The notes under the pieces: model-generated
What the model saw: the letters and a program-made list of their open reading frames with translations, nothing else
What the model was told of the DNA's origin: nothing
Database searches by the model: none
Shown here: piece after piece, positions 17,491 to 37,633 of the stretch
Layout: every line of letters begins with the position of its first letter
Position numbering within the stretch: the stretch's first letter is position 1
Assembly: GCA_024275075.1 (NCBI GenBank)
Contig: JAJRZU010000054.1
Span: forward strand, 6,546 to 70,545
Source: Deltaproteobacteria bacterium
GTDB taxonomy: Bacteria; Desulfobacterota; JAJRXV01
Reading direction: 5' to 3'
Length of the DNA: 64,000 nucleotides
Program-made: the position numbers and the translations under genes

Positions 17491-17723
17491 TTGATAGTAT
17501 GACGTCAAGAACTCTGCGCAACCCATAAACTGTTCCCCTCCCTTGATGGGGCATCCAGATGCACGGGGACAAAGGGGTGGGTGAATAATTTGTAATATCC
17601 AGGGCATCAAAAGGGTATGATGCCCAATCGAATACAAGGCGCTCCTTAAAAACCATCGAGATGGTTTATTTCCCTTGAATAGCATAGATTTATGCGCTAT
17701 ATTTAGACATTGACAGGTGAGGT

Positions 17724-18857
17724 TTGTTGCAAATGGCGCCAGACAACATTTCAACGGAAACAAATAAAATGGATGATAATAAATCAAACGGTACTGTTTT
17801 GATTGTTGATGATGAATACACTACCATTGACCTTTTGATGGCTATCCTTAAACCATACGACTATAACCTGATAGGGGCCCAGTCCGGCAAAGAAGCTCTT
17901 GATATCATTCAAAAAGAGAAAGTAGACCTTGTCCTTTTGGATTTAATGATGCCTGAGATGAACGGCTATGATGTCTGCAAGGCGATAAAAGGTGATAAAA
18001 ATACAAGAGCGATACCAGTGCTGGTAATAAGCGCGCTAAGTGAGGTGCAGGACAATATAAAAGCGATGGAAGTCGGCGCGGAAGGCTTTCTGGCGAAACC
18101 TTTCAATAATAAACTGGTTGTCGTATATGTCCAAACCCTTATCAAGGTGAAAAAACTCACCGATGAGCTGATCAAACTCTACCAGCTAAAGGATGATCTG
18201 ACAAGGATGATCGTCCACGACCTGAAGAACCCTTTAATCTCGGCAGTAGGTTTTATAAACCTGTCGATAAAGGAAAAAAATCTGGACAAAATAAAGTGGT
18301 ACCTGAGCATTATTAAGAACAGTGTCGCGGATGCTCTTAATTTCATTGAGGACTTACACGACATCACCCGTCTGGAAAATAATAAGTTTACGCTGAATAA
18401 AAGTGATGAAAATATCTATTTGATGATCGCTGATATTATTGACGCTATGACGCCTTTATTTAAAAAAAGAGGGCTGACAACAAAATTCGTAAGTGACTGT
18501 AACCTGCGGCATTATATCGATCCGCAGGTATTCAAAAGGGTCATGCAGAATATCTTCACAAACGCCGCGAAATATGCGAACAAAAACTCTACAATAATGA
18601 TCTATGCGTCGATAAAAAATAATCTGCTAAGGGTGCAGGTATCAAACGAGGGCGATGTCATTCCTGAGGAATACAGGTTAAAGATATTCGAGAAATTCGG
18701 GCAGGTAGAGATAATGCAAATGGGCGGCAACGTCGGCAGCGGCTTAGGGCTCGCGTTTTGCAAAATGGCGGTCAAAGCGCATAACGGTAACATCTGGGTA
18801 GAATCACCGGCGGTTGAATTTGATGACGGCACGACTATCATCTTTGAGATATTATAA
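17724..18857 (+). CDS. Hybrid response-regulator/histidine kinase (REC-HisKA-HATPase)
   Basis: REC domain (VLIVDDE..LLDLMMPEMNGY..KPF), H-box (MIVHDLKNPL) and HATPase G-boxes (GSGLGLAFCK). Track start is TTG; the in-frame ATG 9 nt downstream is an alternative. Confidence 0.8.
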   Translation: MLQMAPDNISTETNKMDDNKSNGTVLIVDDEYTTIDLLMAILKPYDYNLIGAQSGKEALDIIQKEKVDLVLLDLMMPEMNGYDVCKAIKGDKNTRAIPVLVISALSEVQDNIKAMEVGAEGFLAKPFNNKLVVVYVQTLIKVKKLTDELIKLYQLKDDLTRMIVHDLKNPLISAVGFINLSIKEKNLDKIKWYLSIIKNSVADALNFIEDLHDITRLENNKFTLNKSDENIYLMIADIIDAMTPLFKKRGLTTKFVSDCNLRHYIDPQVFKRVMQNIFTNAAKYANKNSTIMIYASIKNNLLRVQVSNEGDVIPEEYRLKIFEKFGQVEIMQMGGNVGSGLGLAFCKMAVKAHNGNIWVESPAVEFDDGTTIIFEIL

Positions 18858-18937
18858 GCAAACCGAGCGTTTGACGGACAAACCAAACGTTTGACGTATA
18901 AGGAGAAGGAGTGACCGAAACAACCAGTGCGCGCATC

Positions 18938-19219
18938 TTAACTTAACAACGCTTTTACTATTTTTTTCACATTAACGTCAGCAACATAGTAACGCCTCTT
19001 CGTACCGTCTCTTTCTGACTTTACGACGCCTTTGCTCTTTAGTAGCGAAAGGTGCTGCGAAATCGTCGCCTGCGGCATCTCAAGGCACGTGTAAATGTCT
19101 GTAACGCAACTCTGTTTTGATATCAGTCCGCATACGATCTTAAGGCGCACCGGGTGCCCAAGCACTTTTATAACTTCTGCCAAATCTTCGAAATCTATGT
19201 TATTTTTAATTTTCATCAT
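18938..19219 (-). CDS. ArsR/SmtB-family transcriptional regulator
   Basis: 93 aa with HTH (LGHPVRLKIVCGLISK..CVTDI..ATISQHLSLLKSKGVV). Confidence 0.75.
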   Translation of the reverse strand: MMKIKNNIDFEDLAEVIKVLGHPVRLKIVCGLISKQSCVTDIYTCLEMPQATISQHLSLLKSKGVVKSERDGTKRRYYVADVNVKKIVKALLS

Positions 19220-19548
19220 TTTTTAATATGTAAATATATTAATATATCCCAATGCAGATGTCAAGGACTTTAAACGCTTTTTTATCTTTTTACCTTACCT
19301 CTTATGGGACTGTTACCAAATAGAAGATTTTAAAGAATTTTTAAAAAGCTGTCGTTGTAAGTTATTGAAAAAATGGGGGAGCGACCAACGGACGCGAAGG
19401 GGGGAATTCCCCCCTTTATTGTATTGGGCAACATGCCCATGTAAAAACGTGTGGTATGTGGCAAAAAACGTACGCGGGAACCACCGGATTTTATTATTCT
19501 TGAAAAATAAAGTAAAATAAGATATGTTATAGGTGTAAGTTTTCATAG

Positions 19549-20370
19549 ATGACAAAAGTTTTTGCGAGGTTGGTAATGGGAAAGGAAAAGCCTGTAACAT
19601 ATTCACCAAAAAAACAATTTAGCTTCATCAATGTAATTGTGCTTGTCCAGCTGATTGTGCTCGCGGTTCTGGTATATTTCATACTCTCTCAGAGGCAAAA
19701 GACTGTAGTTGAGACAGTCGATACGAGTAGCCCTGCGCCGATGATAAGGATAACCAGCCAAAAGAGCCCTGCAAAGACCCAGGCCAGGCAAAAGAGCGAA
19801 GCCGCGGCGAGCACAAAGAAGAAGGCGAAGCGAAAGAAGAAAGTGAAAAAAACGAAGGTGGTCGAAGCAAAACTCCCACCGGTGCAAACCGCGCCTAAGG
19901 AGTCCGCGGTAAAGAAAAAAGGTTATTATTTACAGGTAGGCGCCTTTGCTGACAAAGCAAATCTTGAGGAATTAAAGCAGCAGATAGACGGATACGGCTA
20001 TCCCATTGATATCAGGACGGCAAAGAAGAAAATTGATGTCATAAAAGTCACGCTCGGCAGGTTCAGTGCGAAGGACGATGCGGATGAAGCCGCAGGGGAA
20101 ATCAGGGAGCTTGGTTATAAACCTGACATCACAGAGCTTGCTAAAGGTAAATATGAGGTCAGCATCGGCTCAATTTTATATCGATCAGTAGCGCAGGAGA
20201 TCAAGGAGAAGCTTGCCAAGAGTGGTATAAAAGTTAGGATAAAAGAAGAGAAGAAATATAACGACCTGTATATATTGCGGGTTGGTGCCTATGACTCGAA
20301 GCAGGAAGCCAGGGCAGTGCAAAGTGAGTTGACGGGAAAGGGCGTCAAGTCATATTTATTTAATAAATAG
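19549..20370 (+). CDS. Membrane-anchored SPOR-domain protein (two SPOR repeats, Lys-rich linker)
   Basis: N-terminal TM helix, KKAKRKKKVKK linker and two SPOR-like modules (YYLQVGAF..; YILRVGAYDSKQEARAVQSEL). Confidence 0.65.
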   Translation: MTKVFARLVMGKEKPVTYSPKKQFSFINVIVLVQLIVLAVLVYFILSQRQKTVVETVDTSSPAPMIRITSQKSPAKTQARQKSEAAASTKKKAKRKKKVKKTKVVEAKLPPVQTAPKESAVKKKGYYLQVGAFADKANLEELKQQIDGYGYPIDIRTAKKKIDVIKVTLGRFSAKDDADEAAGEIRELGYKPDITELAKGKYEVSIGSILYRSVAQEIKEKLAKSGIKVRIKEEKKYNDLYILRVGAYDSKQEARAVQSELTGKGVKSYLFNK

Positions 20371-22543: not shown

Positions 22544-23722
22544 TTAGAAGTTAGTCGCCGTCGGTATGGGCTGGGTCGGCTCACCTAAGGTGAACTTACC
22601 GGCATCTATCCACTCTTTCAGCGTCTCGGCGATCTTTTTCGCCTTCGGGTAGCTTGAAAGCGGTGCGGTGCGCACTTCCTTGCCATCGATCGTTATCGAG
22701 CCGCTCTTGAGCTGCTTATAGTTCACTTCGCCGTAGCTCTTTGATATCATGTTCGGGTAGTCGTGACTATAATCGACTATCTGTGTGTAGATATCCTCGT
22801 CCTTGATCGCGGTGAACTTCGCCATCTCCTCGTTGAGTATCGGGATCGGTATACCAAGCCCGACGATGAGTGTGACGCCGTACCCTAAGAAGCTGGCGCC
22901 GACTAACCAGTCAGGGCTCATCTGCTTCAGATCACCGATAACAGAGATGGTGCCCGCCGGTGTCCTTGTAACGCCATTCTCGCCGCGCCGCGCGTTTGGT
23001 GCGTGCTGTGTGCCGTTCCAGAACACATACCCCTCGCCGCCGCCTAAGAATATCCTTGTACCGATACCGATAGTCCTGTAGAGCGGGTCGTTGAGCAGCG
23101 GACTGAGCTGACCGGCGCTGCAGTAGTTGGCGTTACCGACATTCGGCTTCAGTACACCCATATACGTGTATATCGCCTTGTCTGACATGTTGACCGCGCA
23201 GTTATAGTTCTGGTACGCGTTCCTTGGGTTACACAAAAACGCCTCATTCACGTCATTTAACGTGACCTCTTTCTCAATCCCCTTGTTCGGGTAGCAGTCA
23301 GTACCATAAGCTGTCGCTTTGAGTTTGACCTTTTTCCCTGCGACGAGGTCTTGTATCACATGGCCGCCGCCATATTTGAACTCACCGGGGAATACTTTGT
23401 TAAGCGGATCCTCTGAGGTGGGCTCCGTAGCGCCGATGTAAATGTCTACAGCGGCAAGCCCCGCATACGATGGTACGTCATTCAAAGACACGTTTGACGC
23501 CTTTATCCTCGGGTTCGCGTGCCCGAAGTTTATGAACGCGCCCGATGAGCACATAGGCCCGAACGTACCGGTCGTTACAACATCAACGTCCCTGGCTGCC
23601 TGCTCGGCGCCCTTCTCCTCAACGATACCGATCATCTCTTCTGCGGTAACCACAACAGCCTGTCTTTGCTTTATTTTCTCGTTTATCTCTTTGTACGTTT
23701 TGTTTACCTTAAAATCTCCCAT
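22544..23722 (-). CDS. DUF39/COG1900-family homocysteine-biosynthesis protein (L-aspartate-semialdehyde sulfurtransferase-like)
   Basis: 392 aa with conserved DUF39 blocks (VVTTGTFGPMCSSGAFINFGH..; GIGTRIFLGGGEGYV; LVGLGIPIPILNEE). Confidence 0.75.
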   Translation of the reverse strand: MGDFKVNKTYKEINEKIKQRQAVVVTAEEMIGIVEEKGAEQAARDVDVVTTGTFGPMCSSGAFINFGHANPRIKASNVSLNDVPSYAGLAAVDIYIGATEPTSEDPLNKVFPGEFKYGGGHVIQDLVAGKKVKLKATAYGTDCYPNKGIEKEVTLNDVNEAFLCNPRNAYQNYNCAVNMSDKAIYTYMGVLKPNVGNANYCSAGQLSPLLNDPLYRTIGIGTRIFLGGGEGYVFWNGTQHAPNARRGENGVTRTPAGTISVIGDLKQMSPDWLVGASFLGYGVTLIVGLGIPIPILNEEMAKFTAIKDEDIYTQIVDYSHDYPNMISKSYGEVNYKQLKSGSITIDGKEVRTAPLSSYPKAKKIAETLKEWIDAGKFTLGEPTQPIPTATNF

Positions 23723-23857
23723 AGTTACAATTTACCCCTTCCTGTAGTGTAGTTTGAAATCATATTTTCAGCTTGAAAAAACATACCACCGCACATATCA
23801 TCTTCCATAAACACCACCTCCTTAATGCGGACTGCGTGGCAGCCCTATACCACAAAG

Positions 23858-24325
23858 TTATATGAAGTACATGAACCGATAGTCAAATTCCCTTTTTATT
23901 CCCATCTCTTTTGCTCTGTCACAGATGTCCTGCAAAGAGATGGCGCTGAAGTAGTCGAAGAAATTCTCAGACGCTTCGTCCCAGAAGGTCCTCGTAGCGC
24001 AGATGTCATACTGTTCACATTTCTTATTACTCTTGCCCTTTCTCTTCGTACAGGGTACAAGCTGCGTGGTATTTTCGACCGCTTTTATGACATTACCGAT
24101 ACTTATATCTTTGGCGGGCTTAGCCAGGGAATATCCGCCGCTTGGCCCACGCTTACTCTTCAAGAGCCCGCCCTTTCTGAGTTTTTGAAATATCTGTTCT
24201 AAATACCTTTGTGAAATCTGCTGTCTTTTCGCGATATCCTTGATCTGGATAGGCAACCCGTTTGAGTGATAAGCTATATCAAACATCGCCCTGACCCCGT
24301 ACCGTACTTTAGTTGAAAGTCTCAT
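23858..24325 (-). CDS. Rrf2-family transcriptional regulator (Cys-containing, IscR/CymR-like)
   Basis: MRLSTKVRYGVRAMFDIA..QISQRYLEQIFQKLRKGGLL..RGPSGGYSLA with a C-terminal Cys cluster (C..C.....C). Confidence 0.8.
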   Translation of the reverse strand: MRLSTKVRYGVRAMFDIAYHSNGLPIQIKDIAKRQQISQRYLEQIFQKLRKGGLLKSKRGPSGGYSLAKPAKDISIGNVIKAVENTTQLVPCTKRKGKSNKKCEQYDICATRTFWDEASENFFDYFSAISLQDICDRAKEMGIKREFDYRFMYFI

Positions 24326-24642
24326 CTATACCTTACTATTTAAGCTGTAATTAAAAAGATTCCACAAGTTAGTATACTTTAGCGCCGGTGTCAAGAAAAA
24401 AGGCGTTTTACGCACATTTTTGTGGGGAATTATCGTGCAAAATATCCGTTTATTTATGAGAAAATACTTTAAATCACGTTGGGTTTAATGTATAATTTTA
24501 AATGAGATGCTATGAACCACTAAGAACACAGAGGATTTCTCAGAGTTCTCGGAGAAAAGCTTTTTAAACAAAAATCTCTGTGTCCTTAGTGTCTACTCTG
24601 CGTCTTGTGTGGTAAAAATAATTTCATTAAAGAGGAGATGCT

Positions 24643-25512
24643 ATGTTTAATAAAATCATGTTCCCAACCGATTTTTCGATGGCGACAAACAGAATATTTG
24701 ACTGTATCAATGACTTTAAGCGGGTTGGTATGACAGAGGCGGTATTCGTTCATATTGTGGATGAAAGGGATGAGAGCGACGTCTTGCAGCGAACGAAATG
24801 GGCAGAGGACGCGTTCAAAGAGTACGAGGAGCGGTATAAGGATGAGGATTTCAGTATCACGACTATCATACGGCATGGCGTACCGTTTATCGCGTTAAAT
24901 GATATTGCCAGCAAGGAGGCCGCCTCGCTGATCGTCATCACTTCACATGGTAAGAGCATGATAGAGAGGATGTTTTTGGGCAGTGTCGCCGAGAAACTGA
25001 TATATCACAGTGAAGTACCCGTTCTTATTGAAAAAGTAGCTATATTTGAGGCGTGTGAGCCCGAGCATTGCCATGAGATAGCGAAGAGGACGTTTAAGCA
25101 TATCCTGTTCCCGACTGACTGGTCAGAGTGCGCGCAGGATGTTTTGAATACGATAAAGCGGTTCAAGGATATCGGTATGGAGTCCGTAACGGTACTGCAT
25201 GTAATGGACGTGCGGAATTTGAAGTACCATACAAATAGTAAGATCAAGGAGTTTGAGGATATCGATTTAGAGAAGCTCAAAGTGGTGAAAGATGAATTAA
25301 CCGCGTACGGTCTAAATGTAGAGACCATGCTCGCCGCGGGCATACCGTATAATGAGATAAAGCGGGCGGCCAGGGAGACAGAGATCACATTAGTCGCTAT
25401 GGGCGTACACGGTAAAGGTTTCATAAAAGAGGCCTTGTTAGGGAGCACCGCCGAGAGGGTCGCGCGGCACGCTTTCAAACCGGTGCTGCTTTTGAGCCAC
25501 AAGAAAGTATAG
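24643..25512 (+). CDS. uspA: Tandem universal stress protein (2x UspA domain)
   Basis: Two UspA modules (KIMFPTDFS..SLIVITSHGKS; HILFPTDWSE..TLVAMGVHGKG). Confidence 0.85.
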   Translation: MFNKIMFPTDFSMATNRIFDCINDFKRVGMTEAVFVHIVDERDESDVLQRTKWAEDAFKEYEERYKDEDFSITTIIRHGVPFIALNDIASKEAASLIVITSHGKSMIERMFLGSVAEKLIYHSEVPVLIEKVAIFEACEPEHCHEIAKRTFKHILFPTDWSECAQDVLNTIKRFKDIGMESVTVLHVMDVRNLKYHTNSKIKEFEDIDLEKLKVVKDELTAYGLNVETMLAAGIPYNEIKRAARETEITLVAMGVHGKGFIKEALLGSTAERVARHAFKPVLLLSHKKV

Positions 25513-25605: not shown

Positions 25606-27273
25606 ATGATAAAAAGCTTCGTCTGGTCTGTCGCGACGCCTTTGTGGCACGCCCCTGATGAGCTTGCGCACTACCTCTACGCCGATATCCTCGAGCGGGA
25701 AAGCGCGTTAGTCCTTAACAAATCATATCTTCTTCCTTATAGTATCTATAAATCAATAGCGGCATCAAATTACTATTCCCATAATTTTGATAAGAAACGC
25801 TACTTGTATGATGGTAAATACGCGCCATTTGAGAAGAATATCGACGCTGTGACAGACCCCGCGGAGGCGAAAGACCTTTTTCTCAGCCTGCCGCCGGTAG
25901 ACCTTGAGGCGATTACAGCGCCGTGGGAGCCTGAAATCGTCAAAGAGCGTGATGACAGCGTTTCTTACGATATATCGTTTTTGTTTACAAAAGCCAAAGA
26001 GCCTGTTTTGATATATTGCCGGAAGTACAAGGGCGAGTTCCAGATGAACACTCCTATGGAGAAATCAACGGGCTTTCTGTTTATCGATAATAAGCTCGAT
26101 GAGACGCTGATCGTCGGTGATGGACAAGACGCCTCTATCAAGGGTATGATCGCGACCTTTGCAAAGCGTCCTGACGAGCGGCTCGCCGTGCGGGCGCTGC
26201 CGATAGGCTGGGAGAAAAGGGACTATTTTACGCACGTCAATATGTACCCCCCGCTATATTACATGATAGTCGCCGGTATTCAAAGAGCTGTGCGCTGTTT
26301 TGGCGCAAGTATAATCAACGATCACTTTTTCAGCAGATTATTCTCCGTATTCCTCAGCGTTATCGCGGTCTTCTTCGTCTACGGGTCATTTAAGGTCGTC
26401 TGGCCGGATGACGAGCGCTGCGCCATTGCCGGTACGCTGCTATTCTCGTTCTGGCCGCAAAACTCGTTCGTGTCCGGTACGATAAACCCCGAAGCGCTTC
26501 TGAACTTATTTTGTACCGTCTCCTTTTACTACATTGTCAGAATACTGTTTGCTAAGGACGAATCATCAGCGAAGGATTGGGCGCTTTTCGCACTCGCGGC
26601 ATCGCTCGCGGCGCTCTCAAAAGTAAGCGGCATTCTCTTAATATCCATCTGGGGCGCAATATTAGTGCTATGGGCGATATATAAAGAAGGTAAGCTGCGC
26701 GCTGTCTATTTCCTGCCGGGCATACTGATGTTCTTCGGGGCATACCTTCTCTGGTTCAAACAGCGCGGGTTCGGGGTATTGGCGCCGATGGCGCTCGTAG
26801 ACTTCTCTTTACCCCAATATATCGCGTATTACATACAAAACCCTATGCCGCTGTTCAAGACATTTGCCGGCTTTTTCGGCGCGCTAAAGAACCCTATGCC
26901 AACGCCGGCGTATTATATACTGATCCTCTTCATCATCATTATGCTGTTCTTCTTTATTTACGCTATGATAAACAATATACACAAAGAGAGAAGAAAAAGA
27001 TTCGCGATCCTTTTTGTATCCGTGACTCTCTCTTTTCTCTTCTTCTTCGTCATGGAGTTTTTAAGATTGAAAAGTACCGGCCTGGTATTACAGGGCAGAT
27101 ACTTCCTCTTCCTGGCGCTACCGCTCACCATAATAGCATTGGCTGGCATAGAGCAAAAGGATGGCCGGATGAGAAGATACGCAAATATCATGTTAGACCT
27201 GTTTGTCCTGACGGTTTTATCGATGAACGTTTACGCTCTGGTGAATTATGCCGCGCAGAACTACAATTTGTAG
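25606..27273 (+). CDS. GT-C-fold (PMT/ArnT-like) polytopic membrane glycosyltransferase-like protein
   Basis: N-terminal PDELAHY (the DE..H/Y motif of the first periplasmic loop of ArnT/PMT enzymes) and about 10 C-terminal TM helices. True start is probably upstream (see findings). Confidence 0.55.
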   Translation: MIKSFVWSVATPLWHAPDELAHYLYADILERESALVLNKSYLLPYSIYKSIAASNYYSHNFDKKRYLYDGKYAPFEKNIDAVTDPAEAKDLFLSLPPVDLEAITAPWEPEIVKERDDSVSYDISFLFTKAKEPVLIYCRKYKGEFQMNTPMEKSTGFLFIDNKLDETLIVGDGQDASIKGMIATFAKRPDERLAVRALPIGWEKRDYFTHVNMYPPLYYMIVAGIQRAVRCFGASIINDHFFSRLFSVFLSVIAVFFVYGSFKVVWPDDERCAIAGTLLFSFWPQNSFVSGTINPEALLNLFCTVSFYYIVRILFAKDESSAKDWALFALAASLAALSKVSGILLISIWGAILVLWAIYKEGKLRAVYFLPGILMFFGAYLLWFKQRGFGVLAPMALVDFSLPQYIAYYIQNPMPLFKTFAGFFGALKNPMPTPAYYILILFIIIMLFFFIYAMINNIHKERRKRFAILFVSVTLSFLFFFVMEFLRLKSTGLVLQGRYFLFLALPLTIIALAGIEQKDGRMRRYANIMLDLFVLTVLSMNVYALVNYAAQNYNL

Positions 27274-27326
27274 GCGGCGCCATGATGCTTGCGTTTAGAT
27301 GCAGTTAAAGTAAAAGAGAGACTCTC

Positions 27327-29483
27327 GTGAATAAGCACCTGAAAATATCGATATTCCTTATGCTGCCCGCGCTTATCGTTTTGTGTGTCTACTTCGCTTT
27401 CAAAGATATCGATACGTATGCGACCGCACCGGTAGACGTAGGCACAAAGCGATTATCCACGACAGGTGAACTGTCGCAGGGGGTGAACATAAAGCAGGCG
27501 TTCACCCCAAAATCTGACGATATCACCGCGATAGAGCTCTTTGTCGGTACGTATGCCCGCGATGATAACGAGGGAGAGTGGACGATATCTCTATTTGCCG
27601 CCGATACCGCCAAAAGGCTCATGACGAAATCTGTCAGCGTAAACGATTTTATGGATAACGGTTACGTAAAGATACCCGTGCCCGTGGTGACCGGTGTTGC
27701 GGGGAGACCGGTCACGATGATCTTCCAGTCGAACTCGCCACAGGGGAAAGGCGCCACGATCTACATCGACAAGGGCGATTCGCGTACCGGCGAGCTGACA
27801 GTGAACGGGCGGCAGGTAAAAGGGGCGCTCATCTTCAACCTGTACACGCGGCAGCTGAGCGCGCTTAGTAACCGCTCCCCATTCGCGCTCATTTCATACA
27901 TCTACATCCTGCTCGCTCTTTTGCTTTACACTTTTTACGCCATATTCAAAAGATTCCAGGGGAACCCCACACGCCTGTTAGCCGCGCTTCTCGCGCTATT
28001 CACTATGCTCAAGCTCTACTTCCTTGTATACCCTGACCTGAACATACTCTACCCGTTCATGTTCCCTGATTCCTATGAGCTGATAGCTGACGGCCTGCAC
28101 TACGCCGGTTATAACGTAAACTATTCGGTAAGGCCGCCTGCTCTGCCGCTCATCATCGCGGGCATGGAGCGGGGCGGGGTACTGTTCCTGCTGCCGCTCT
28201 TGAACCAGCTTGTCATGGTGTGGCTCGTCATCGCCATCTACAATTTCCTCAAAGAGCGGTTCGTGCCCTATGCGGCGCTCATCACCGGCGCGCTCATCTA
28301 TTTCAACTTCTTCTTGCAGGATATCACATACTACCCGCTTGCCGATATGTACGCTCTTTTGTTCATCGTGCTTAGCGTTATCAAATTCTGCCAGGCCGAA
28401 AAGGATGTGAAGAATTACATACCCGCGGCTATCTTTGCGGCAATAAGCTTCACCTTCCAGTACGCCGCGTTCCTGCTTCTGCCAGGCTACCTGATAATCA
28501 TACTGCTGTTTCGCAGGGAGCATCTGAAAAAGCGGGCGGCGCATATCGCATTCTTCACCGGTGCGGCTATCTCATCGGTATGGTTCCTCTACCGGTGGCG
28601 GGCGTTCGGTGACCCGTTTTATTCACCGAAACCATATTTCAGGCTCGTCGGCCTCCATGTGGACAGCGTATTCTTCTACCTGTTCAACCTGGTCGGCACG
28701 CTTAGCATACCCGTTACCATTTTGTTTATTACCGGTCTTTTGAAAAGCCCGTTTATGAAGGATAGCGGCGCGAAAAAGGTAAGCCTCACGATGCTGACCC
28801 TTCTGCTTTGCAATGTCGCGTTCTGGGTATTCATCTATGACTGGAATGACCGCCGGTTCATACTGTACTGGTCGCTGCCGGTATACTATTTCGTCACCTG
28901 CGCCATAGACCCGCTTGTCAGAGCGTACAGGAATGATAATCGAGCGATAAAAGCCGCCCTCATCATCATCCTCGCGATAGTGTTCATGTATAACCAGCTG
29001 GGTTACTCCGGTCATCCCCTTACGGCTGACAAGGTCGCACTCGCGCCATACAGGTTTGTCAAGGCGGCAATAGTCACCGATGGTCTGAAAATGAACTTAA
29101 GCCCTGATGACCTTGAGGTAGTGAGTGAGAAGGAGCGCCCGTTTCAGTTCATCAGCCTGACGAACCTTGTATATAATAAGTTCTTCAAGAGTAACGATGA
29201 AACAGAAGAGATCTACAGTGAACTTCTTGAGATAAAGGATTATCTGGTGAGTAATGGAGTAAGCGCCCTTCGCTACCTGCCGCACGACGAGAGCGAAGCT
29301 GTCTGGTACATCAACAAAAACCGGTTCGGTAATCCGTTGAAAGCCATCTTGAACAAAGAGCGTGACATTGGCGATATAAGCCGCGGGAGCGTTATCCTCG
29401 TCAAGAGGCCGTATCGCGCGCTTGACCTCGATGAGAGCTGGATCGTGTTTGAGATGAACCACTTCTACCTTTGCGTAAAATAA
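27327..29483 (+). CDS. Large polytopic membrane protein (N-terminal periplasmic domain, about 11 TM helices, C-terminal soluble domain)
   Basis: Signal-anchor followed by a roughly 170-aa soluble domain, then many hydrophobic helices and a roughly 150-aa C-terminal domain. Plausibly a glycosyltransferase or polymerase, but no diagnostic motif. Confidence 0.5.
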   Translation: MNKHLKISIFLMLPALIVLCVYFAFKDIDTYATAPVDVGTKRLSTTGELSQGVNIKQAFTPKSDDITAIELFVGTYARDDNEGEWTISLFAADTAKRLMTKSVSVNDFMDNGYVKIPVPVVTGVAGRPVTMIFQSNSPQGKGATIYIDKGDSRTGELTVNGRQVKGALIFNLYTRQLSALSNRSPFALISYIYILLALLLYTFYAIFKRFQGNPTRLLAALLALFTMLKLYFLVYPDLNILYPFMFPDSYELIADGLHYAGYNVNYSVRPPALPLIIAGMERGGVLFLLPLLNQLVMVWLVIAIYNFLKERFVPYAALITGALIYFNFFLQDITYYPLADMYALLFIVLSVIKFCQAEKDVKNYIPAAIFAAISFTFQYAAFLLLPGYLIIILLFRREHLKKRAAHIAFFTGAAISSVWFLYRWRAFGDPFYSPKPYFRLVGLHVDSVFFYLFNLVGTLSIPVTILFITGLLKSPFMKDSGAKKVSLTMLTLLLCNVAFWVFIYDWNDRRFILYWSLPVYYFVTCAIDPLVRAYRNDNRAIKAALIIILAIVFMYNQLGYSGHPLTADKVALAPYRFVKAAIVTDGLKMNLSPDDLEVVSEKERPFQFISLTNLVYNKFFKSNDETEEIYSELLEIKDYLVSNGVSALRYLPHDESEAVWYINKNRFGNPLKAILNKERDIGDISRGSVILVKRPYRALDLDESWIVFEMNHFYLCVK

Positions 29484-29511
29484 CCACCGCACGGCCTGAC
29501 AGATGTCCTTC

Positions 29512-29916
29512 TTATCGTTTTTCGCGGGGATGGAAAAATCCTTTGATACAGTTATGCTTGCGCACGCAGATCTGGATGTGGTTTTTCTCTTTAAAACCGG
29601 CATTTTCATATAGATCTTTACCTTCCCAGAAGACACCACGCACAGAGTCAAACGGCGCTTTCCCCTCATCCCTGTAAAATTTATGAGTAGTTTCAATAAC
29701 AGCACAGTCCAGTCTACGCTTTAGCAGGGCTCTCTCTTGCCCTAATGGTTTATTCTCTGGTAAAATAAGTCCACGTTCTTTATATAGCATTGCAAGACGG
29801 TCATAATCATTTTCACTTGGTTCTAAGTACTTATTATTAGAATTGATAATATTATCAACAACTTCCTTGTCGCAACCGTGGAAACCAAGAACAAAAGATG
29901 GAAGGGCTTTATACAT
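29512..29916 (-). CDS. Hypothetical 134-aa protein with LGFHGC motif, in a low-GC islet
   Basis: ORF in AT-rich DNA, overlapping the upstream small gene by 8 nt. FHGC plus later Y/E residues faintly suggest an H-Y-E ADP-ribosyltransferase-like fold (speculative). Confidence 0.45.
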   Translation of the reverse strand: MYKALPSFVLGFHGCDKEVVDNIINSNNKYLEPSENDYDRLAMLYKERGLILPENKPLGQERALLKRRLDCAVIETTHKFYRDEGKAPFDSVRGVFWEGKDLYENAGFKEKNHIQICVRKHNCIKGFFHPREKR

Positions 29917-30160
29917 TCTTATTAGCTTGCCTGTAAGGTTTTCTCACATTACCCTTAGGGGTACAGATACCTATATCAATCAACTGCTTTAAGGCGAGTT
30001 TCTTAGCTTCTTCTTTGGGTAATTTAGCAAACTGTTCAGCAAGTTGCTTGTTAGACTCTCTTATTTCTCTGGCTACTTGTTTGGCTACTTGTTTTGCTAC
30101 TTGTTTGGCTACTTGTTTGGCTACTTGTTTTGCTTCTTGTTTTGCTTCTTGAGTGGTCAT
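29909..30160 (-). CDS. Small (83 aa) protein with (KQVA)n tetrapeptide tandem repeat
   Basis: EAKQEAKQVAKQVAKQVAKQVAKQVAREI is encoded by 6-7 tandem 12-nt units. Translationally coupled to the 134-aa ORF. Confidence 0.45.
   Translation of the reverse strand: MTTQEAKQEAKQVAKQVAKQVAKQVAKQVAREIRESNKQLAEQFAKLPKEEAKKLALKQLIDIGICTPKGNVRKPYRQANKNV
30071..30148. repeat. Tandem 12-bp repeat (GGCTACTTGTTT)n within the small ORF
   Basis: About 6.5 perfect or near-perfect 12-nt units. In-frame, so a candidate for length variation. Confidence 0.8.
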
Positions 30161-30245
30161 AACTCTTATCCCCTTTATTGATGATAAAAATATAGCGCTT
30201 TATTAAGGTATTGTCAACTCATCTTTGTTTCTAAATAAAAATAGC

Positions 30246-30274
30246 TTGACATTAAAAGCTTGAAAAACATAATA
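30246..30274 (+). promoter_or_regulatory. Sigma-70-type promoter for hom (TTGACA-17-ATAATA)
   Basis: Perfect -35, 17-nt spacer and good -10, about 110 nt upstream of the hom ATG. Confidence 0.5.
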
Positions 30275-30382
30275 TTAGCAGAATGTAGGGTGGGCTGTGT
30301 CCACCAATAAAATATTAAAACAAAAAAATCTGTGCACTCTGTGTTGTACTCTGTGCACTCTGTGGTAAAAAAAGGAGTCCTT

Positions 30383-31693
30383 ATGAAACGTATAAATATC
30401 GGGTTGATCGGGTTCGGTACTATCGGCGCCGGAGTCGTCAAGCTGTTGAAAAAGAACAGCGCTTTGATATCGCACAAAACCGGTGTCAAGCTTGTACTCA
30501 AGAAGATAGCCGATCTGGACATCACCACCGACCGCGGCGTAAAGGTGGACAAAGGGGTGCTTACGACCAATGTAGATGATATTTTGCGCGACCGGGAAAT
30601 CGATATCGTGATCGAGCTCATCGGTGGTTATAAGCCGGCGAAGGAGTTCATCCTGCGGGCGATAAAGAGCGGTAAGCACCTTGTCACCGCGAACAAGGCT
30701 ATGTTGGCTGTGCACGGCGACTCGATATTCGCCGCCGCCGCAAAAAACAGCGTCCATCTGGGCTTCGAGGCGGCCGTATGCGGCGGGATACCGATCATCC
30801 GCTCGATAAAAGAGGGTCTTTGCGCGACGAAGATATCCTCGTTCTACTGGATATTCAATGGAACGTGCAACTATATCCTGACAAAGATGACGAAGGAGGG
30901 CGAGAAATTCGACGATGTCCTGAAAGAGGCGCAAAGACTCGGTTATGCCGAAGCCGACCCGACATTTGATATCCAGGGCATTGATACGGCGCATAAGCTC
31001 GCGATATTGATAATGTTATCTTTTGGTACAAAGGTGCGGTTCAAGGATATTTACACAGAAGGGATATCAAACATCGCCCCGATAGATATTGAGTTTGCGA
31101 GCAATCTTGGTTATAAGATAAAGCTGATCGCGATCGCACGCAATGACGGTAAGAGCGTTCAGGCGCGCGTGCACCCGACGATGCTGAAGTCAGACCACCC
31201 GCTCGCGACAGTCGGTGACGTCTATAACGCCGTGTATGTCAACACCGACGCGACAGGCCCGACGATGTTCTACGGTAAGGGCGCGGGTATGATGCCGACC
31301 GCGAGCGCTGTGCTAAGCGACGTGATAGAGGCCGCGCGGGGCATTGCCCAGGGGTTCTCAGGCAGGGTACCGCTTTTGTCGTTAAAGGATGAGTTCATGA
31401 AGGAGATACCGATAAAACCGATAGGGGAGACTGCCAGCAAGTATTACATGAGGATAACCGTGAAGGATAAACCCGGCGTACTGTCAAAGATCGCCGGTAT
31501 ACTTGGTGATAACGGTATCAGCCTCGAATCTGTTATCCAGAAGGGTAAGCCGTCTTCAAAGAACGTGCCGATAGTCCTGCAGACGCACCACGCGCCCGAT
31601 TCTGGGTTCAAAAACGCTATCAGGAGGATCGATAAGCTGAGCTTTGTCACAAAGAAGACCGTATACATTCGGATCGAAGACCAGCTCGAATAA
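30383..31693 (+). CDS. hom: Homoserine dehydrogenase (with C-terminal ACT domain)
   Basis: RBS AAAGGAG then ATG at 30383 (the track ORF starts upstream at 30332). Motifs INIGLIGFGTIGAGV, NAD-binding and catalytic domains, and a C-terminal ACT domain (YYMRITVKDKPGVLSKIAGILGDNGISL). Confidence 0.9.
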   Translation: MKRINIGLIGFGTIGAGVVKLLKKNSALISHKTGVKLVLKKIADLDITTDRGVKVDKGVLTTNVDDILRDREIDIVIELIGGYKPAKEFILRAIKSGKHLVTANKAMLAVHGDSIFAAAAKNSVHLGFEAAVCGGIPIIRSIKEGLCATKISSFYWIFNGTCNYILTKMTKEGEKFDDVLKEAQRLGYAEADPTFDIQGIDTAHKLAILIMLSFGTKVRFKDIYTEGISNIAPIDIEFASNLGYKIKLIAIARNDGKSVQARVHPTMLKSDHPLATVGDVYNAVYVNTDATGPTMFYGKGAGMMPTASAVLSDVIEAARGIAQGFSGRVPLLSLKDEFMKEIPIKPIGETASKYYMRITVKDKPGVLSKIAGILGDNGISLESVIQKGKPSSKNVPIVLQTHHAPDSGFKNAIRRIDKLSFVTKKTVYIRIEDQLE

Positions 31694-31710: not shown

Positions 31711-33621
31711 ATGAATAAAACGAAATGGCTCATAATTCTGTTTATACTCACTTTCGGGCTGACCGCCTGTTCATCATCCAGTGATAAGGGGGAAACGCCG
31801 GTGGAAGCGGTGGATTACCACGAGGTCGGCTGGGGGGAGATAGGGCACCAGTCGTCCGCTGTGAGTAGCCTTGACACGTGCAGGAGCTGCCATGGCGACG
31901 ACTTCTTCGGCGGCTCCTCGGGTGTCGATTGCTACAACTGCCACTTCGGCCCCACGGGCGGGTACGTGCCGTCAGAGATAGCCGTCATAAGGGGTATCGC
32001 ACCGGTGACAGACGAGTCCGACGGTTCGGGCAGTCCGGTGGTCACGTCCTCCTTACCGAACGCAGCGGTAAATTCATACATATATTTGCAGGTAAATGCA
32101 AGCGAGGTGGATGATACCGCCGCCGTAGCGTGGAGCCTGTCCGCCGCGCCGCCTGGCTCCGCCTCCGCGATAACACAGATAAACAGCGAAAACATAAAGT
32201 TCTTCGCTGACACGAAGGGCTTTTATACCGTTACGGTAACAGCGGCGCGAAACGGCGAAGCGGTATCCGAAGAGGTAGTTATCTACGCGAACGCGTACAC
32301 CGGCGCGGCTGCCTGCGCAACCTGCCACAGCGGCGAGTACGATGATTATATGACAACCGGTCACGCGACTGTCGGTGACGCCCTCATCGAAGGGTACTTT
32401 ACCGGTGCGGTCGGGAACCTCGCGGCTGAGTGCTTTTATTGCCACACAACCGGCTACGATCCCGCCGGTAACGCCGAGAATGGCGGCTTCGACGATGCCG
32501 CAGATGAGGCCGGTTTCACTATTGACAGCCTTGCGTCCTTAGACGATTTTGATGATTTTAAGGCCGCGTACCCGACAGTAAACGCGCTGTTGAACGTGCA
32601 GTGCGAGAACTGCCACGGACCCGGCGAAGAGCATAAAGGCGTCTCATCATTAAGCGAGAGCGTCTGCGGTCAGTGCCACGATTCCGGTGGCGGTGCCATA
32701 CACTCATACCAGATAAAAACGTACCAGTGGCGGCTTTCAGCCCATTCGGATTACGACTCCGCCGCGTTCACAACGCCTGTCGGTGACGAGCACGCCCAGT
32801 GCGCAGCCTGCCACAGCGGCGCGGGTTTCATCGACAACGCAAACGGCGTAGCGTCAGAGAGCCTGCGCACCGGTACACAACCGGTAACGTGCGCGGTCTG
32901 CCACGACCCGCACAAAGGCGGCGGCGGGCACCAGCTGCGCGCGGTTAGTGACATTACTCTCGCCGGCGGCGAGGTCATCAGCGGCGGCGGCGACGGCAGA
33001 TTGTGCATGAACTGCCACAGATCACCGGTGGATGCCGAGAGCTACGCGGCGCAGTATCACGAAAGCTACGGCGCTCACTACAGCCCGCAGGCGGAGATGC
33101 TATTTGGCGCAGGCGGCATCGAGTACGGCGAGGAGATCGCGTCGTCACCCCACATAAGCGCCGTCACCGACTCCTGCGTCGGGTGTCACATGGCGTCACC
33201 GAACGTTTCCGCGCTATTTGACGATGACGCGAAGGCTTACAAGGCGGGCGGGCATACTTTTAATATGAGCTACGACGCACTCGAGAACACGGCGGTGTGC
33301 CAGAGCTGCCACAGCGGGCTGACACAGTTTAACATCACAGCGCAGGCCGACTATGACGGTGACGGCGCGGTCGAGGGTGTGCAGGATGAAGTAAAGGGTC
33401 TGTTAGAGGTGCTCGCGATTAAACTGCCACCGCAAGATGATCCGGCGGTGACGGTCACCGCCGACTACACGGAAGCCGAGCTGAAAGCGGCGTATAACTA
33501 TACTTTCGTTGAACGTGACAAAAGCCTTGGTATCCACAACTTCGGGTATGCCGTAGATCTTTTGCAAACGACATACAGAAACTTAACCGGTGCGGATATC
33601 CCAGGCGGCGACATATATTAG
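31711..33621 (+). CDS. Multiheme c-type cytochrome lipoprotein (11 CxxCH motifs)
   Basis: Lipobox LTAC after signal peptide. Eleven CxxCH heme-binding sites (CRSCH, CYNCH, CATCH, CFYCH, CENCH, CGQCH, CAACH, CAVCH, CMNCH, CVGCH, CQSCH). Confidence 0.85.
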   Translation: MNKTKWLIILFILTFGLTACSSSSDKGETPVEAVDYHEVGWGEIGHQSSAVSSLDTCRSCHGDDFFGGSSGVDCYNCHFGPTGGYVPSEIAVIRGIAPVTDESDGSGSPVVTSSLPNAAVNSYIYLQVNASEVDDTAAVAWSLSAAPPGSASAITQINSENIKFFADTKGFYTVTVTAARNGEAVSEEVVIYANAYTGAAACATCHSGEYDDYMTTGHATVGDALIEGYFTGAVGNLAAECFYCHTTGYDPAGNAENGGFDDAADEAGFTIDSLASLDDFDDFKAAYPTVNALLNVQCENCHGPGEEHKGVSSLSESVCGQCHDSGGGAIHSYQIKTYQWRLSAHSDYDSAAFTTPVGDEHAQCAACHSGAGFIDNANGVASESLRTGTQPVTCAVCHDPHKGGGGHQLRAVSDITLAGGEVISGGGDGRLCMNCHRSPVDAESYAAQYHESYGAHYSPQAEMLFGAGGIEYGEEIASSPHISAVTDSCVGCHMASPNVSALFDDDAKAYKAGGHTFNMSYDALENTAVCQSCHSGLTQFNITAQADYDGDGAVEGVQDEVKGLLEVLAIKLPPQDDPAVTVTADYTEAELKAAYNYTFVERDKSLGIHNFGYAVDLLQTTYRNLTGADIPGGDIY

Positions 33622-34431: not shown

Positions 34432-35376
34432 TTAGTCCCCCATTTTTTCTATTATCCCCGCCGAAAGCAGCGGTATCATTATCTCGTGATGACCGGTCAG
34501 CGTGTAACCCGTTCCGCCGCCCTTTGTCGGGCGCCTGACGACATTTGTCACCGGCCTGTAGTGCTGGATAAAATCCATGTTGACGGCGGTGAAATCCGTC
34601 AGGTCGTGCCCTAAGTTGCTGACAAGACTCACGGCTTTCAAGAAGACTTCGGGCAGGATCACCGCGCTCCCGATATTGAAATATACGCCGCCCGCGAGCT
34701 TCGCGATGACTGACGAGAATATCCGAAAGTCCCCTAATGACGCGGCGGCAAACAGCTTCGCCGGGAATTTTGGGTGGATGTGGATGATATCGGTACCGAT
34801 CGCTATATGGACGGTCAGCGGGATATCAGCCCTTCGCGCCGCGGCGATTACGCTTAATGATTTGTGCGGCATGTCGCTTGAGTTTATGGCGTCCCCGATG
34901 ATGCCGCCAAGGCCGGTGTCCGTGCTCGCGCAGTCATTGAGCGCCCCGTTCAGGAAATCCGCCGTCTCTCTCGCCATCCCGAAGTTACCGGTTTTCAAGG
35001 ATGCCGCGACGTCCTCGGAGGTCTGACCTGTCATCGCCAGCTCGGAATCGTGGATGATACCGGCGCCGTTCAACGCGATGGCGTCAACGATACCTCTTTC
35101 CACCAGATCGATTATTATTGGGTTGAGACCGGTTTTGATGGTGTGCGCGCCCATAGCGAAAACGACTATAGAGCCGTTTGACTTCGCTTCGACGACCTTG
35201 TCGATCACCTTGCGCAGGTTACCGGCGGCAAGGATATTCGGCAAGGAGTCCATGAACTGGCTAAAGGAGCCGCCGCTTATGTGCGGTTTGGCAAAATCCG
35301 CGGCGTTCACTTTACTCTTTCTATCTTTTATGGAATACGTTTTGACCTTATCGTAATCAATCTCATCGAATTTCAT
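34432..35376 (-). CDS. Deoxyhypusine-synthase-like protein
   Basis: Start at internal Met MKFDEIDY (35376). The upstream part of the track ORF is an artefact of translating through tRNA-Ala. Motifs GIVDAIALNGAGIIHD and GGVYFNIGSAVILPE resemble the DHS family. Confidence 0.5.
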   Translation of the reverse strand: MKFDEIDYDKVKTYSIKDRKSKVNAADFAKPHISGGSFSQFMDSLPNILAAGNLRKVIDKVVEAKSNGSIVVFAMGAHTIKTGLNPIIIDLVERGIVDAIALNGAGIIHDSELAMTGQTSEDVAASLKTGNFGMARETADFLNGALNDCASTDTGLGGIIGDAINSSDMPHKSLSVIAAARRADIPLTVHIAIGTDIIHIHPKFPAKLFAAASLGDFRIFSSVIAKLAGGVYFNIGSAVILPEVFLKAVSLVSNLGHDLTDFTAVNMDFIQHYRPVTNVVRRPTKGGGTGYTLTGHHEIMIPLLSAGIIEKMGD

Positions 35377-35414
35377 GCTGTTCTCATCAAAAAGATTTGC
35401 GTGCAAGAAAATTT

Positions 35415-35490
35415 TGGTGGAGCTGGACGGGATCGAACCGACGACCTCTTGACTGCCAGTCAAGCACTCTCCCAACTGAGCTACAGCCCC
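35415..35490 (-). tRNA. tRNA-Ala (anticodon GGC)
   Basis: GGGGCTGTAGCTCAGTTGGGAGAGTGCTTGACTGGCAGTCAAGAGGTCGTCGGTTCGATCCCGTCCAGCTCCACCA. Cloverleaf with G3:U70 Ala identity pair, anticodon loop CT-GGC-AG, T-loop GGTTCGATCC and encoded CCA. Confidence 0.9.
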
Positions 35491-35761
35491 ACCTGTCTGC
35501 TTTTCTAACATTTATTTTTATTGTTGTCAACTTTTTAGTTTCGCAAGGAGTTTTCCTGTTTTTTCAATCTAATTATATAAATATACAAAAGTATGCGCAA
35601 ATTCCCCTCATCTATTCTTTTCTTTTGCAAAAATACATTTTTTATTCTATTATGCCTGAGATATTTACTTATATCATGGGACTTAAGCCAAATAGAATAA
35701 AATACATATTTTCAAAAAATCCTATGTTATAAGTTATTAATATTACGGGGCGCCCTTTAAA

Positions 35762-37633
35762 TTGGGTTGGGATCATGCCCGTCATGGAGATAAATTGAAA
35801 AGATTTTATAAGATCATTATAATAATATTTGTTATTATCTGCTTCAAATGTTCATTGCTCTTTTCCGCCGGGCAGGGAAACGCCGGTGACCAGAACGCTA
35901 AAGTAGCCGATAGCGATACTCCAATCAAGGCTGATTCTCAGCAGCAGTATACCGACGTCAACAAGAAGATCCTGAACATCGGCGGCGCATACTACCATTC
36001 AGTAAAGAAGGGTGACACGATTTGGGGCATATTGATGAGAGAGAACCAGACCGACCCGAACTATTACAACTATTACATGAAGGAGCTTTTACGGTTAAAC
36101 CCGCAGATAAAGGATGCGAACAGGATAGAGGTGGGAGACAAGCTCCTTATACCCGATATCGTACATAAGAGGAAGTGGAAACCACCAAAGAAAGCGAAGA
36201 AAAGGAAGAAAGCGCCGAAGAAGCTGACGGTAAAAAAGGAGACGGCGCCTAAGGAGAAGGATGCCAGGAAAGAGCCTGAGACGGTAGTCAGTAAAAAGAT
36301 AACGGAGCCGCCGAAGGAGACGGAAAAACCCAAAGAAGATAAAAAGAAGATCTCAAAGCCCAAGGTCAAGCAACCGAAGCAGAAACCTAAGAAGAAAGAA
36401 GATGAAGCAAAAATAACGAAGAAGACGAAGAAGGAACCAAAGAAGGTTGAAGAGAAGATAAAAGTAAAAAGTAACACAGGTAGTGCGCCGAAAGTGGCTA
36501 TTTCTACTGAGTACGTCAGTAATCAAAGCGGCAGCGGTATTGGCGGCGGCAGTGCGATAATGGGTACTGATCTGAAAGACGCGCTGTCGGCGGCGGGCGG
36601 GAACGTATCGACGAAGGGGGTCACCTTCTTCCCGGTCACCGGCGGCAAATCGCTACGGCTGAACAACGCGAATACGCCTCTCGTGTACAGCGGCAACAAG
36701 AAGGTCGTCCTGGATTACGGTAACAAGATCAGCGACAAGGTCGAGGACTATATCAGGCAAAAGTTCAAGTACTATGATTTCGTCAATGTCGATGCGGGTG
36801 ACAGCGACAAGGTCATCATCGGTAAGGTGCTCAAAGCGTCGGGCTACTATTCCATCCGCGAGAACAAGGATATCAAGATCGGCGCTAATGTGAAGCTTGT
36901 GGTGTCTTATGACTGGCTGGTGGAGAGGGGGCCGGACAGCTTCCTTGGCGGTGACGTCAGGCTCCTTAAATTAAGAGGCCGCGATGACGCGAAGGTACCG
37001 GATTATATCAGGGATTACCTTGAGAAATACGGGTTTTTCATAAAAGAGCTAAGGGTACTGAAAAAAGGGGAGAAGCTTAAGTCGCGCAAACGCTCTGGCA
37101 GGATCATCAGCATCGGCAAATCAAAGAGCGTCAGGAAAGTGATACGGAGCCTGTTACAGGTATATGGCATAAAATTCAAAGAGGGTGTCTCGCTCAAGTT
37201 CCACGATACCGACGAGACGATGATGCCGGCAAACTTCTATTTCGAGATCGATTCGAAGGTCAATATCGTGAACCTGGAGCCGGTGACGCCAAAGGCGCTG
37301 GAGCTGTCACAAAGCTACAAGATAAACCTCATTCAGCTTAATACGAAGACAGACCGCAAAGAGGTGACAAAAAAAGTCTTAAAGATGTTGCAAAAGGACT
37401 GTGAGTATGGTACTTTTAGATTGATAGAGGTAGAGGGTGGCAAGCCGTTTATCGATGTTGAATTGAAGGGGTTCTTGTTAGGCGGCACTCAAGTAAATGG
37501 AGAGCGGAGTAAGGGAGTCCCATATTATACATTACCGGTGGACAAGGAGAACGTTTTCATAACTTATTACAAGTTCCCGTCCACTATCAAACGTTACCTG
37601 ACCTTGCATGGTTACGTAATCGAGCAAAAGTAA
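35762..37633 (+). CDS. Secreted LysM-domain protein with Lys-rich (KKAKKRKK) linker and unknown C-terminal domain
   Basis: Signal peptide, LysM (YHSVKKGDTIWGI..LNPQI..IEVGDKLLIP), then roughly 130 aa of K/E/P-rich low-complexity sequence and a roughly 350-aa C-terminal domain. Confidence 0.65.
   Translation: MGWDHARHGDKLKRFYKIIIIIFVIICFKCSLLFSAGQGNAGDQNAKVADSDTPIKADSQQQYTDVNKKILNIGGAYYHSVKKGDTIWGILMRENQTDPNYYNYYMKELLRLNPQIKDANRIEVGDKLLIPDIVHKRKWKPPKKAKKRKKAPKKLTVKKETAPKEKDARKEPETVVSKKITEPPKETEKPKEDKKKISKPKVKQPKQKPKKKEDEAKITKKTKKEPKKVEEKIKVKSNTGSAPKVAISTEYVSNQSGSGIGGGSAIMGTDLKDALSAAGGNVSTKGVTFFPVTGGKSLRLNNANTPLVYSGNKKVVLDYGNKISDKVEDYIRQKFKYYDFVNVDAGDSDKVIIGKVLKASGYYSIRENKDIKIGANVKLVVSYDWLVERGPDSFLGGDVRLLKLRGRDDAKVPDYIRDYLEKYGFFIKELRVLKKGEKLKSRKRSGRIISIGKSKSVRKVIRSLLQVYGIKFKEGVSLKFHDTDETMMPANFYFEIDSKVNIVNLEPVTPKALELSQSYKINLIQLNTKTDRKEVTKKVLKMLQKDCEYGTFRLIEVEGGKPFIDVELKGFLLGGTQVNGERSKGVPYYTLPVDKENVFITYYKFPSTIKRYLTLHGYVIEQK

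Follow-up and report, generated by a model that had tools for sequence, protein, structure and literature searches.

A small islet of low-GC DNA, positions 29484 to 30240 of a 64-kb stretch of Deltaproteobacteria bacterium contig JAJRZU010000054.1 (the whole stretch of 64,000 nucleotides is called the window here), carries two short minus-strand open reading frames (ORFs) of 83 and 134 aa between the gene for a membrane protein and the homoserine dehydrogenase gene hom. The explanation that we consider probable is that this islet is a horizontally acquired, toxin-antitoxin-like cassette of two genes, one of them encoding an ADP-ribosyltransferase (ART), and that the copy found here is a relic in which the enzyme gene has been cored out. 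Such a cassette, made up of a promoter, a small gene and an ART gene, would be self-contained and would belong to a widespread, uncharacterised two-gene family. Its enzyme would be dead in the window as a result of a 66-codon in-frame deletion, and its small gene, enlarged by five extra 12-bp units, would be intact and under purifying selection. The two ORFs lie as the initial annotation of this DNA, made from the letters and a list of ORFs, had described them, translationally coupled and overlapping by 8 nt (ATGTATAA), with the ATG of the 134-aa ORF falling within the last codons of the 83-aa ORF.

The 134-aa ORF had been described as having no obvious family. This holds for Pfam, NCBIfam and PADLOC, none of which gave a match, but it does not hold beyond them, because the ORF has 2,612 homologous clusters (90% identity clusters, E ≤ 0.01) and 1,143 clusters at 50% identity. 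Nearly all members of this family, which has neither a Pfam nor an NCBIfam model, are 196 to 207 aa in length, with ~205 aa being normal. Set against its relatives, the window ORF is 57% to 70% identical over their 39 N-terminal and ~95 C-terminal residues, and the middle is absent. In the numbering of P0002, the closest full-length homologue, the absent part is W40 to E105, exactly 66 codons in frame. DNA alignment with L228, one of two sister loci described below, places the event at the same point, with the homology of L228 running on into TGACTCGGTCATGGGATTTATTTTTGGGAG where the window sequence jumps (alignment A6). The lost segment comprises 20 invariant or near-invariant positions, among them the motif WLGxGxYFWE of full-length members, and invariant Y46 of this motif falls inside the deletion. 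The motif GFHGC with invariant H13, found in all aligned members, is kept, and the window ORF also retains invariant E98 (FWEG) and Q115 (HIQ), which are candidates for a third catalytic residue (E/D/Q on a late strand). PHROG phrog_14664 was the one family to which direct membership could be traced, matched at E 5e-25 by full-length members and at E 5.5e-10, in two stretches, by the window ORF; PHROG assigns it no function, and it adds no mechanism. These alignments identify the 134-aa ORF as what is left of a ~205-aa ART-like gene after an in-frame deletion.

The assignment to the ART superfamily comes from structure prediction and from sequence models. The AlphaFold2 model of P0002, built from a 48-sequence alignment, is of high confidence (predicted local distance difference test, pLDDT, 87.5; predicted template modelling score, pTM, 0.84), and Foldseek comparison of this model with solved structures returned weak matches, of which all with any support are ART superfamily proteins, namely a cyanophage pre-ejectosome/ejection protein, matched in one domain (E 6.7e-4), and AcrIF11, diphtheria toxin, Tpt1/KptA and tankyrase. 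Among predicted viral structures the best named matches were ART-PolyVal-like proteins (E 7e-6 to 5e-5). On the sequence side, a profile search of the PDB gave chance matches only and Pfam PARP touches full-length members at E 0.0016, under its curated cut-off. The PADLOC model PD-T4-9_A was matched by four of the four members tested over residues 9 to 64, a span that includes the His and Tyr motifs (E 8e-5 to 2.6e-3); the window ORF did not match it. PD-T4-9, since renamed CmdTAC, is a phage-defence system of toxin, antitoxin and SecB-like chaperone, in which the toxin CmdT, a diphtheria-toxin-type ART with an H-Y-[E/D/Q] triad, ADP-ribosylates mRNA (PMC11618068; bioRxiv 10.1101/2024.02.24.581848). 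Structural modelling shows the family to fold as an ART of the diphtheria-toxin/PARP type (H-Y-E), and by analogy with these enzymes H13 (GFHGC) and Y46 (GxGxYFW) would be the His and Tyr motifs of the triad. The PADLOC matches point weakly to a distant relationship with CmdT.

The window protein itself is not predicted to have this fold. Mapped onto the P0002 model, the deletion removes the Tyr-bearing strand 45-49, the helix 52-64, strands 76-83 and 88-90, and the start of the helix 94-114, so that three core strands are gone, and AlphaFold2, given essentially the same alignment, returned a low-confidence model of the window protein with a pLDDT of 50.9 and a pTM of 0.36. Because of this drop in pLDDT, the missing Tyr strand and the precedent of the CmdT Y41A mutant, which is inactive (PMC11618068), we infer that the window copy has lost its activity; its product is most likely catalytically dead and poorly folded, and probably misfolded.

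The 83-aa ORF had been read as a repeat peptide. A 12-bp tandem repeat is indeed present, but what it has expanded is a conserved small partner gene. Full-length ART genes of the family are commonly preceded by an ORF of 47 to 60 aa on the same strand, in many cases with an overlap of 1, 4 or 8 nt into the ART gene, and the product of this ORF carries the C-terminal motif FLxxAGIxxxxGxLxxxY. Among the 142 related loci with enough upstream sequence, 73 have an upstream ORF with the strict motif pattern, many more have looser versions of it, and ~24 are without such an ORF. The 83-aa window ORF, with LxxxGIxTPxGxxxKPYR as its version of the motif, aligns with these upstream ORFs and differs from them by a 20-residue N-terminal insertion of AKQV/AKQE repeats. 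This insertion is an in-frame gain of 60 bp (5 units) seen in the window only, facing a 60-nt gap in the sister loci L228 and L227 (alignment A6). A profile of 24 small proteins retrieved 64 called homologues, all of them unnamed, the closest being 77% to 83% identical, and no Pfam, NCBIfam, PHROG or PADLOC family was matched by the small proteins. Scans of the 83-aa ORF against Pfam, NCBIfam and PADLOC gave low-complexity noise only, such as SseC and ParE_toxin at E > 0.001. By its alignment, then, the 83-aa ORF is a conserved small partner with a repeat expansion and not a mere repeat peptide.

The closest small proteins, 83% and 77% identical, lead respectively to L228, from a metagenomic run, and L227, from a Thermodesulfobacteriota metagenome-assembled genome, and comparison of these two loci with the window defines the cassette. 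Promoter, ribosome-binding site and small gene are conserved across all three in the DNA alignment. The homology starts 10 to 20 bp upstream of the -35 box, and the sequences are unrelated beyond ~30226 (L227) and ~30237 to 30240 (L228), in agreement with position 30240, where the initial annotation had put the right edge of the islet in forward-strand order. Whereas the window cassette has hom and the membrane-protein gene as neighbours, that of L227 lies by genes for a DUF1015 protein, a methyltransferase and P-II/Amt, and that of L228 by other genes again; the cassette is low in GC in all three hosts (0.39, 0.39 and 0.34 vs 0.46 to 0.52). Near-identical cassettes in three unrelated contexts, together with the presence of the family on 70 plasmids and on prophage-like contigs, support the earlier proposal of a horizontally acquired mobile cassette, and sequence comparison shows it to be mobile.

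The ART gene has met a different fate in each of the three. In the window, the in-frame deletion begins right after Tyr-Asp39; in L228, the very next codon, that of Trp40, has changed from TGG to TGA, and homology is lost after ~residue 78; in L227, the ART gene has been swapped, exactly at the ATGTATAA junction, for a gene of 294 aa with an Frg domain (2283-3167). The Frg protein matches the PADLOC phage-defence candidate PDC-S15 (E 5e-35), and Frg is a clade of the ART superfamily predicted to act as an antiviral NADase (PMC9503650). Profile comparison of this protein with the ART family described here was not significant, and we claim no direct homology between the two. Deleted, nonsense-mutated and effector-swapped, the cassettes document a module in decay whose small gene persists. 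The ratio of nonsynonymous to synonymous substitution rates (dN/dS) of the small gene is 0.13 to 0.27 among the three cassettes, and that of the first 39 ART codons is 0.16 between the window and L228 (small samples). These values suggest that the small gene is still under purifying selection and that the ART genes were inactivated late compared with the time at which the cassettes diverged.

Short forms recur elsewhere in the family. At least eight other members, 118 to 146 aa in length, have kept both termini and lack central parts, with boundaries that differ each time. They are 48% to 65% identical to full-length proteins vs 31% to 52% to any other short form, and because each is nearer to full-length proteins than to other short forms, they arose independently, at least nine times when the window copy is included. 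One of them, P0121, shares its left boundary with the window copy and has kept its small partner, and its otherwise invariant GFHGC is already GFHAC. This pattern fits the repeated inactivation of a harmful gene, and the bias toward in-frame events is partly one of ascertainment, because out-of-frame events are invisible as single ORFs. At the P0121 locus (L229 2448-2780), a 110-aa ORF that looks PIN-like by eye follows with a 4-nt overlap, and this region may consist of several stacked small modules.

Members of the family occur on 70 plasmids, 35 of them conjugative and including Pseudomonas syringae and Rhizobium plasmids, on 61 IMG/VR contigs, and in gut and sediment metagenomes. No recurrent third gene was found among the 149 genes flanking 38 non-redundant loci; housekeeping genes are found there side by side with genes for integrases, nucleases, helix-turn-helix proteins and the tail, portal and capsid of phages. 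The pair carried by pPSR1, a plasmid of P. syringae, has only hypothetical-protein annotations for both genes and lies between an Frg-domain gene and a tyrosine recombinase, near a Phd/RelE pair. Frg genes stand beside or near the module at L231 1869-2588 (pPSR1), L092 2193-2960 and L215/L216 7860-8786. This proximity, taken with the swap in L227, suggests that the two ART clades use the same hotspots or are linked in function. Isolated phage genomes gave a single partial match, in Synechococcus phage S-B28, and the label of a phage gene family was rejected on the ground that the isolated-phage collection holds this one partial match only. The matched domain lies in an S-B28 protein (MK016662.1 24452-24661; L226), and the N-terminal part of the family, with its His and Tyr motifs, also resembles a domain in the pre-ejectosome protein of cyanophage A4 (PDB 9k3a_B), a likeness that hints at an ART domain injected together with cyanopodovirus DNA.

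Intact members, in which a mostly helical protein of 47 to 60 aa is translationally coupled to a ~205-aa H-Y-E ART, would in the mechanism that we propose behave as toxin-antitoxin modules of type II or as abortive-infection pairs. With NAD+ as its substrate, the ART would modify some macromolecule of the cell, for which RNA is the best guess by analogy with CmdT, and the small protein would bind and neutralise the ART and possibly aid its folding. The suggestion in the initial annotation of a toxin-antitoxin or defence pair is thus upheld as regards the architecture and the toxin-type superfamily of the enzyme, but not as regards a working pair at this locus, where the Tyr strand and two further core strands have been deleted.

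Several observations weigh against this account. At the level of the family, toxicity, neutralisation and target are carried over by analogy; the similarity to CmdT consists of weak hidden Markov model matches confined to the N-terminal ~55 residues; known defence genes are merely sporadic among the neighbours; and searches of six small proteins (E ≤ 10) and of the window ORF turned up no domain of any kind, whether helix-turn-helix, ribbon-helix-helix, AbrB or other. The layout also departs from that of CmdTAC in that the small gene comes first here and cmdT comes first there, and in that there are two genes here and no SecB-like chaperone. As to the window copy, AlphaFold2 confidence does not measure stability, the retained parts of the ORF preserve every invariant residue, and the first 39 ART codons have a dN/dS of 0.16 between the window and L228 (small samples), so the remnant could still be under selection, or the deletion could be recent.

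These last two observations are also arguments for reading the short form as a selected functional variant, that is, as an inactive ART-derived decoy, a regulator or an anti-addiction device against intact cassettes. The promoter and small gene of the window cassette are intact, the same central region has been lost in frame independently at least nine times, and in P0121 the deletion starts at the same residue and the partner has been kept. We nevertheless regard this reading as distinctly unlikely, since the recurrence is in part the ascertainment effect mentioned above, the deletion boundaries vary, the GFHGC motif of P0121 is itself mutated, the sister cassette L228 was inactivated by a plain nonsense codon and truncation, and the window protein has no confident predicted fold. 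A more doubtful proposal still is that the family serves mobile-element counter-defence, with an AcrIF11-like ART modifying a host immune protein, the small protein as an accessory or regulator, and the window copy as a dead remnant. The fold resembles AcrIF11 (PDB 6kyf) and the phage ART-PolyVal and ejection-protein domains, members are found on plasmids and, in the company of tail, portal and capsid genes, on contigs of viral or prophage origin, and at one locus helix-turn-helix genes adjoin the pair. However, the AcrIF11 match is weak (E 0.06, TM-score 0.32 to 0.41), no more than one isolated phage genome gave so much as a partial match, helix-turn-helix neighbours number 2 of 149, and the match at the sequence level is to the model of a defence toxin, PD-T4-9_A; a gene so tightly coupled in translation to a small one ahead of it, and so often inactivated, better suits an enzyme toxic to its own cell.

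The swap in L227 raises the further question of whether the small protein could be the primary unit, a regulator or adaptor for interchangeable effectors of the ART superfamily, such that the window cassette functions through its small gene alone. There the same small gene, with a 77% identical product and the same promoter, is coupled to an Frg-domain gene; Frg genes adjoin the module in pPSR1 and are near it in three other loci; and purifying selection acts on the small gene even where the ART gene is dead. We hold this to be the least probable of the three alternatives, because a single swap has been seen, which may have come about by chance recombination and have orphaned the small gene, because the small protein shows no detectable DNA-binding or other domain, and because the Frg protein has no profile similarity to the family. 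Two other candidates were rejected. Chance ORFs in an AT-rich spacer are at odds with the strong homology and with a gene order, overlap and partner motif that recur in many loci, and a polymorphic secreted toxin with its immunity gene is at odds with the lack of a trafficking or secretion domain and with the position of the small gene, which is upstream and not downstream. A bolder version of the decoy and adaptor ideas is that the small protein is a new class of partner serving both CmdT-like and Frg clades and kept after the death of the effector, and/or that cored remnants are functional, for instance as decoys against re-invasion. We think this unlikely; if it were true, what lies in the window would not be debris but a device still at work in anti-addiction or regulation, and the intact family a widespread, chaperone-free and undescribed relative of CmdTAC.

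The relic of a toxin-antitoxin-like ART cassette thus remains our preferred reading of the islet, the features of which are given in the table below.

Features of the islet in the coordinates of the window, with the basis on which each was placed
Feature	Positions	Strand	Basis or remark
83-aa ORF, small partner gene	29909-30160	minus	ORF coordinates; putative antitoxin or co-factor
134-aa ORF, putative ART-like remnant	29512-29916	minus	ORF coordinates, homologue alignments
Deletion junction, codon 39 (GAC, Asp) / codon 40 (CGT, Arg)	29799-29800	minus	Protein alignments A1/A2, direct sequence reading
12-bp tandem repeat, 6.8 copies, encoding AKQV/AKQE	30070-30151	minus	Tandem Repeats Finder; repeat family D1
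Sigma-70-type promoter-like site TTGACA-17-TATATT	30189-30217	minus	Consensus scan, 11/12 matches
Left (upstream) cassette edge	30218-30240	minus	Homology to sister cassettes stops (DNA alignment A8)
28-bp spacer, right islet edge	29484-29511	none	Between stop codons of ART remnant and convergent 718-aa gene

The contrast in composition with the flanks that first drew attention to the islet is real. Its GC is 0.387 vs 0.475 for the whole window, placing it at the 2.3rd percentile among equal-sized windows, and the lowest-GC 757-bp stretch in the entire 64 kb begins at 29641. GC at third codon positions is 0.35 in the 83-aa ORF and 0.29 in the 134-aa ORF vs 0.67 to 0.68 in the flanking membrane-protein gene and hom. 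Composition alone is weak evidence of foreignness, because there are ~20 further patches in the window with GC below 0.42. Examples of at least 757 bp are 691-2738, 7021-8548, 17521-19988, 23621-25158, 35041-36388, 59961-61658 and 62521-63998, so that this genome is compositionally patchy.

The promoter-like site would drive the cassette, and a ribosome-binding site, AAGGGGA, lies between it and the 83-aa ORF. No terminator-like site was found in the 28-bp spacer at the other end. Searches at the islet for flanking direct or inverted repeats that would point to an insertion mechanism found none, there were zero Rfam family matches within 29300-30500, and no further ART, small or Frg gene turned up in the 64-kb window. 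The only tRNA found, a tRNA-Ala at 35415-35490, is ~5 kb away and itself in a low-GC patch.

On one flank is a convergent gene, ending 28 bp from the stop codon of the ART remnant, whose product is a membrane protein of 718 aa with a PMT_2 glycosyltransferase domain. Together with another large multi-pass membrane protein, of 555 aa, it is encoded before the islet at 25606-29483, and a pattern-based scan detected no relative of the 718-aa protein among GTDB species representatives. On the other flank hom is divergent, with its real start at the ATG at 30383. The nearest Hom, 78% identical, is from a "Deltaproteobacteria" metagenome-assembled genome that has only hom in common with the window, and because this nearest available genome shares no neighbouring genes around hom, the synteny comparison is uninformative. 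Downstream of hom, at 31711-33621, is a 636-aa ORF with many CxxCH motifs that looks like a multihaem cytochrome by eye; this ORF and the relatives of Hom fit an organism of Desulfobacterota type. Just 5' of the hom ATG, at 30329-30364, are two copies, 21 nt apart, of a 15-nt direct repeat (TCTGTGCACTCTGTG), a possible operator or leader element of this gene. Facing hom at 30246-30275, and divergent from the cassette promoter, is a plus-strand promoter-like site, TTGACA-16-CATAAT (11/12).

For this genome the islet would be of minor consequence, a dead mobile cassette beside hom from which the cell should feel no effect. The islet is of value as a lead to a very large unnamed family in which a CmdT-like ART is paired with a tiny partner and no chaperone.

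Like type II toxin-antitoxin modules, this family has two small, co-directional and coupled genes with their own promoter-like site and a patchy, mobile distribution, and it differs from them in that the DNA-binding domain that is usual (though not universal) in antitoxins was not found here. DarT-DarG, ParT-ParS and RES-Xre are likewise two-gene, mobile and patchily distributed modules around a toxin of the ART superfamily. DarG is an antitoxin with macrodomain hydrolase activity, and ParS and Xre are helix-turn-helix antitoxins (see also PMC9503650), whereas the partner here is 47 to 60 aa long with no known domain detected. Scans with Pfam, NCBIfam and PADLOC found no sequence match to the DarT, ParT or RES toxin families.

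UniRef gives one member of the family the label "DUF3990 domain-containing". DUF3990 belongs to the Pfam ART clan and forms the toxin tip of type VI secretion Rhs proteins (PMC7955679, PMC4524185), but Pfam DUF3990 (PF13151) matched neither the window ORF nor five full-length members at E ≤ 1. A true DUF3990 protein (Pfam E 3.9e-42) is encoded immediately upstream of the module at L139 3058-3543; it has no significant profile similarity to the family, and direct homology is not claimed. With the anti-CRISPR protein AcrIF11, an ART that phages and plasmids carry (PMC12421852), and with the ART-PolyVal proteins the family has in common an ART fold found by structure search and carriage on mobile elements. 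This likeness is at the level of the fold only, with 10% to 14% identity, and those proteins act in counter-defence or are packaged in virions, with no small coupled partner described.

The closest parallel is with CmdTAC. The best match to the CmdT model PD-T4-9_A is weak, at E 8e-5 over ~55 residues, the window copy is without the whole Tyr strand, and the partner here is much shorter than its counterpart and lacks the long disordered chaperone-addiction tail. Like CmdT, however, full-length members are small, stand-alone, diphtheria-toxin-type ARTs of ~190 to 205 aa with an N-terminal His motif and a Tyr ~30 residues further on, and like CmdTAC they are carried on prophages and plasmids with a small helical partner protein. 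If intact modules are toxin-antitoxin or abortive-infection pairs, defence by ADP-ribosylation of RNA or of another macromolecule would extend well beyond the three-gene CmdTAC, and the family would offer a minimal system in which to study how such an enzyme is restrained.

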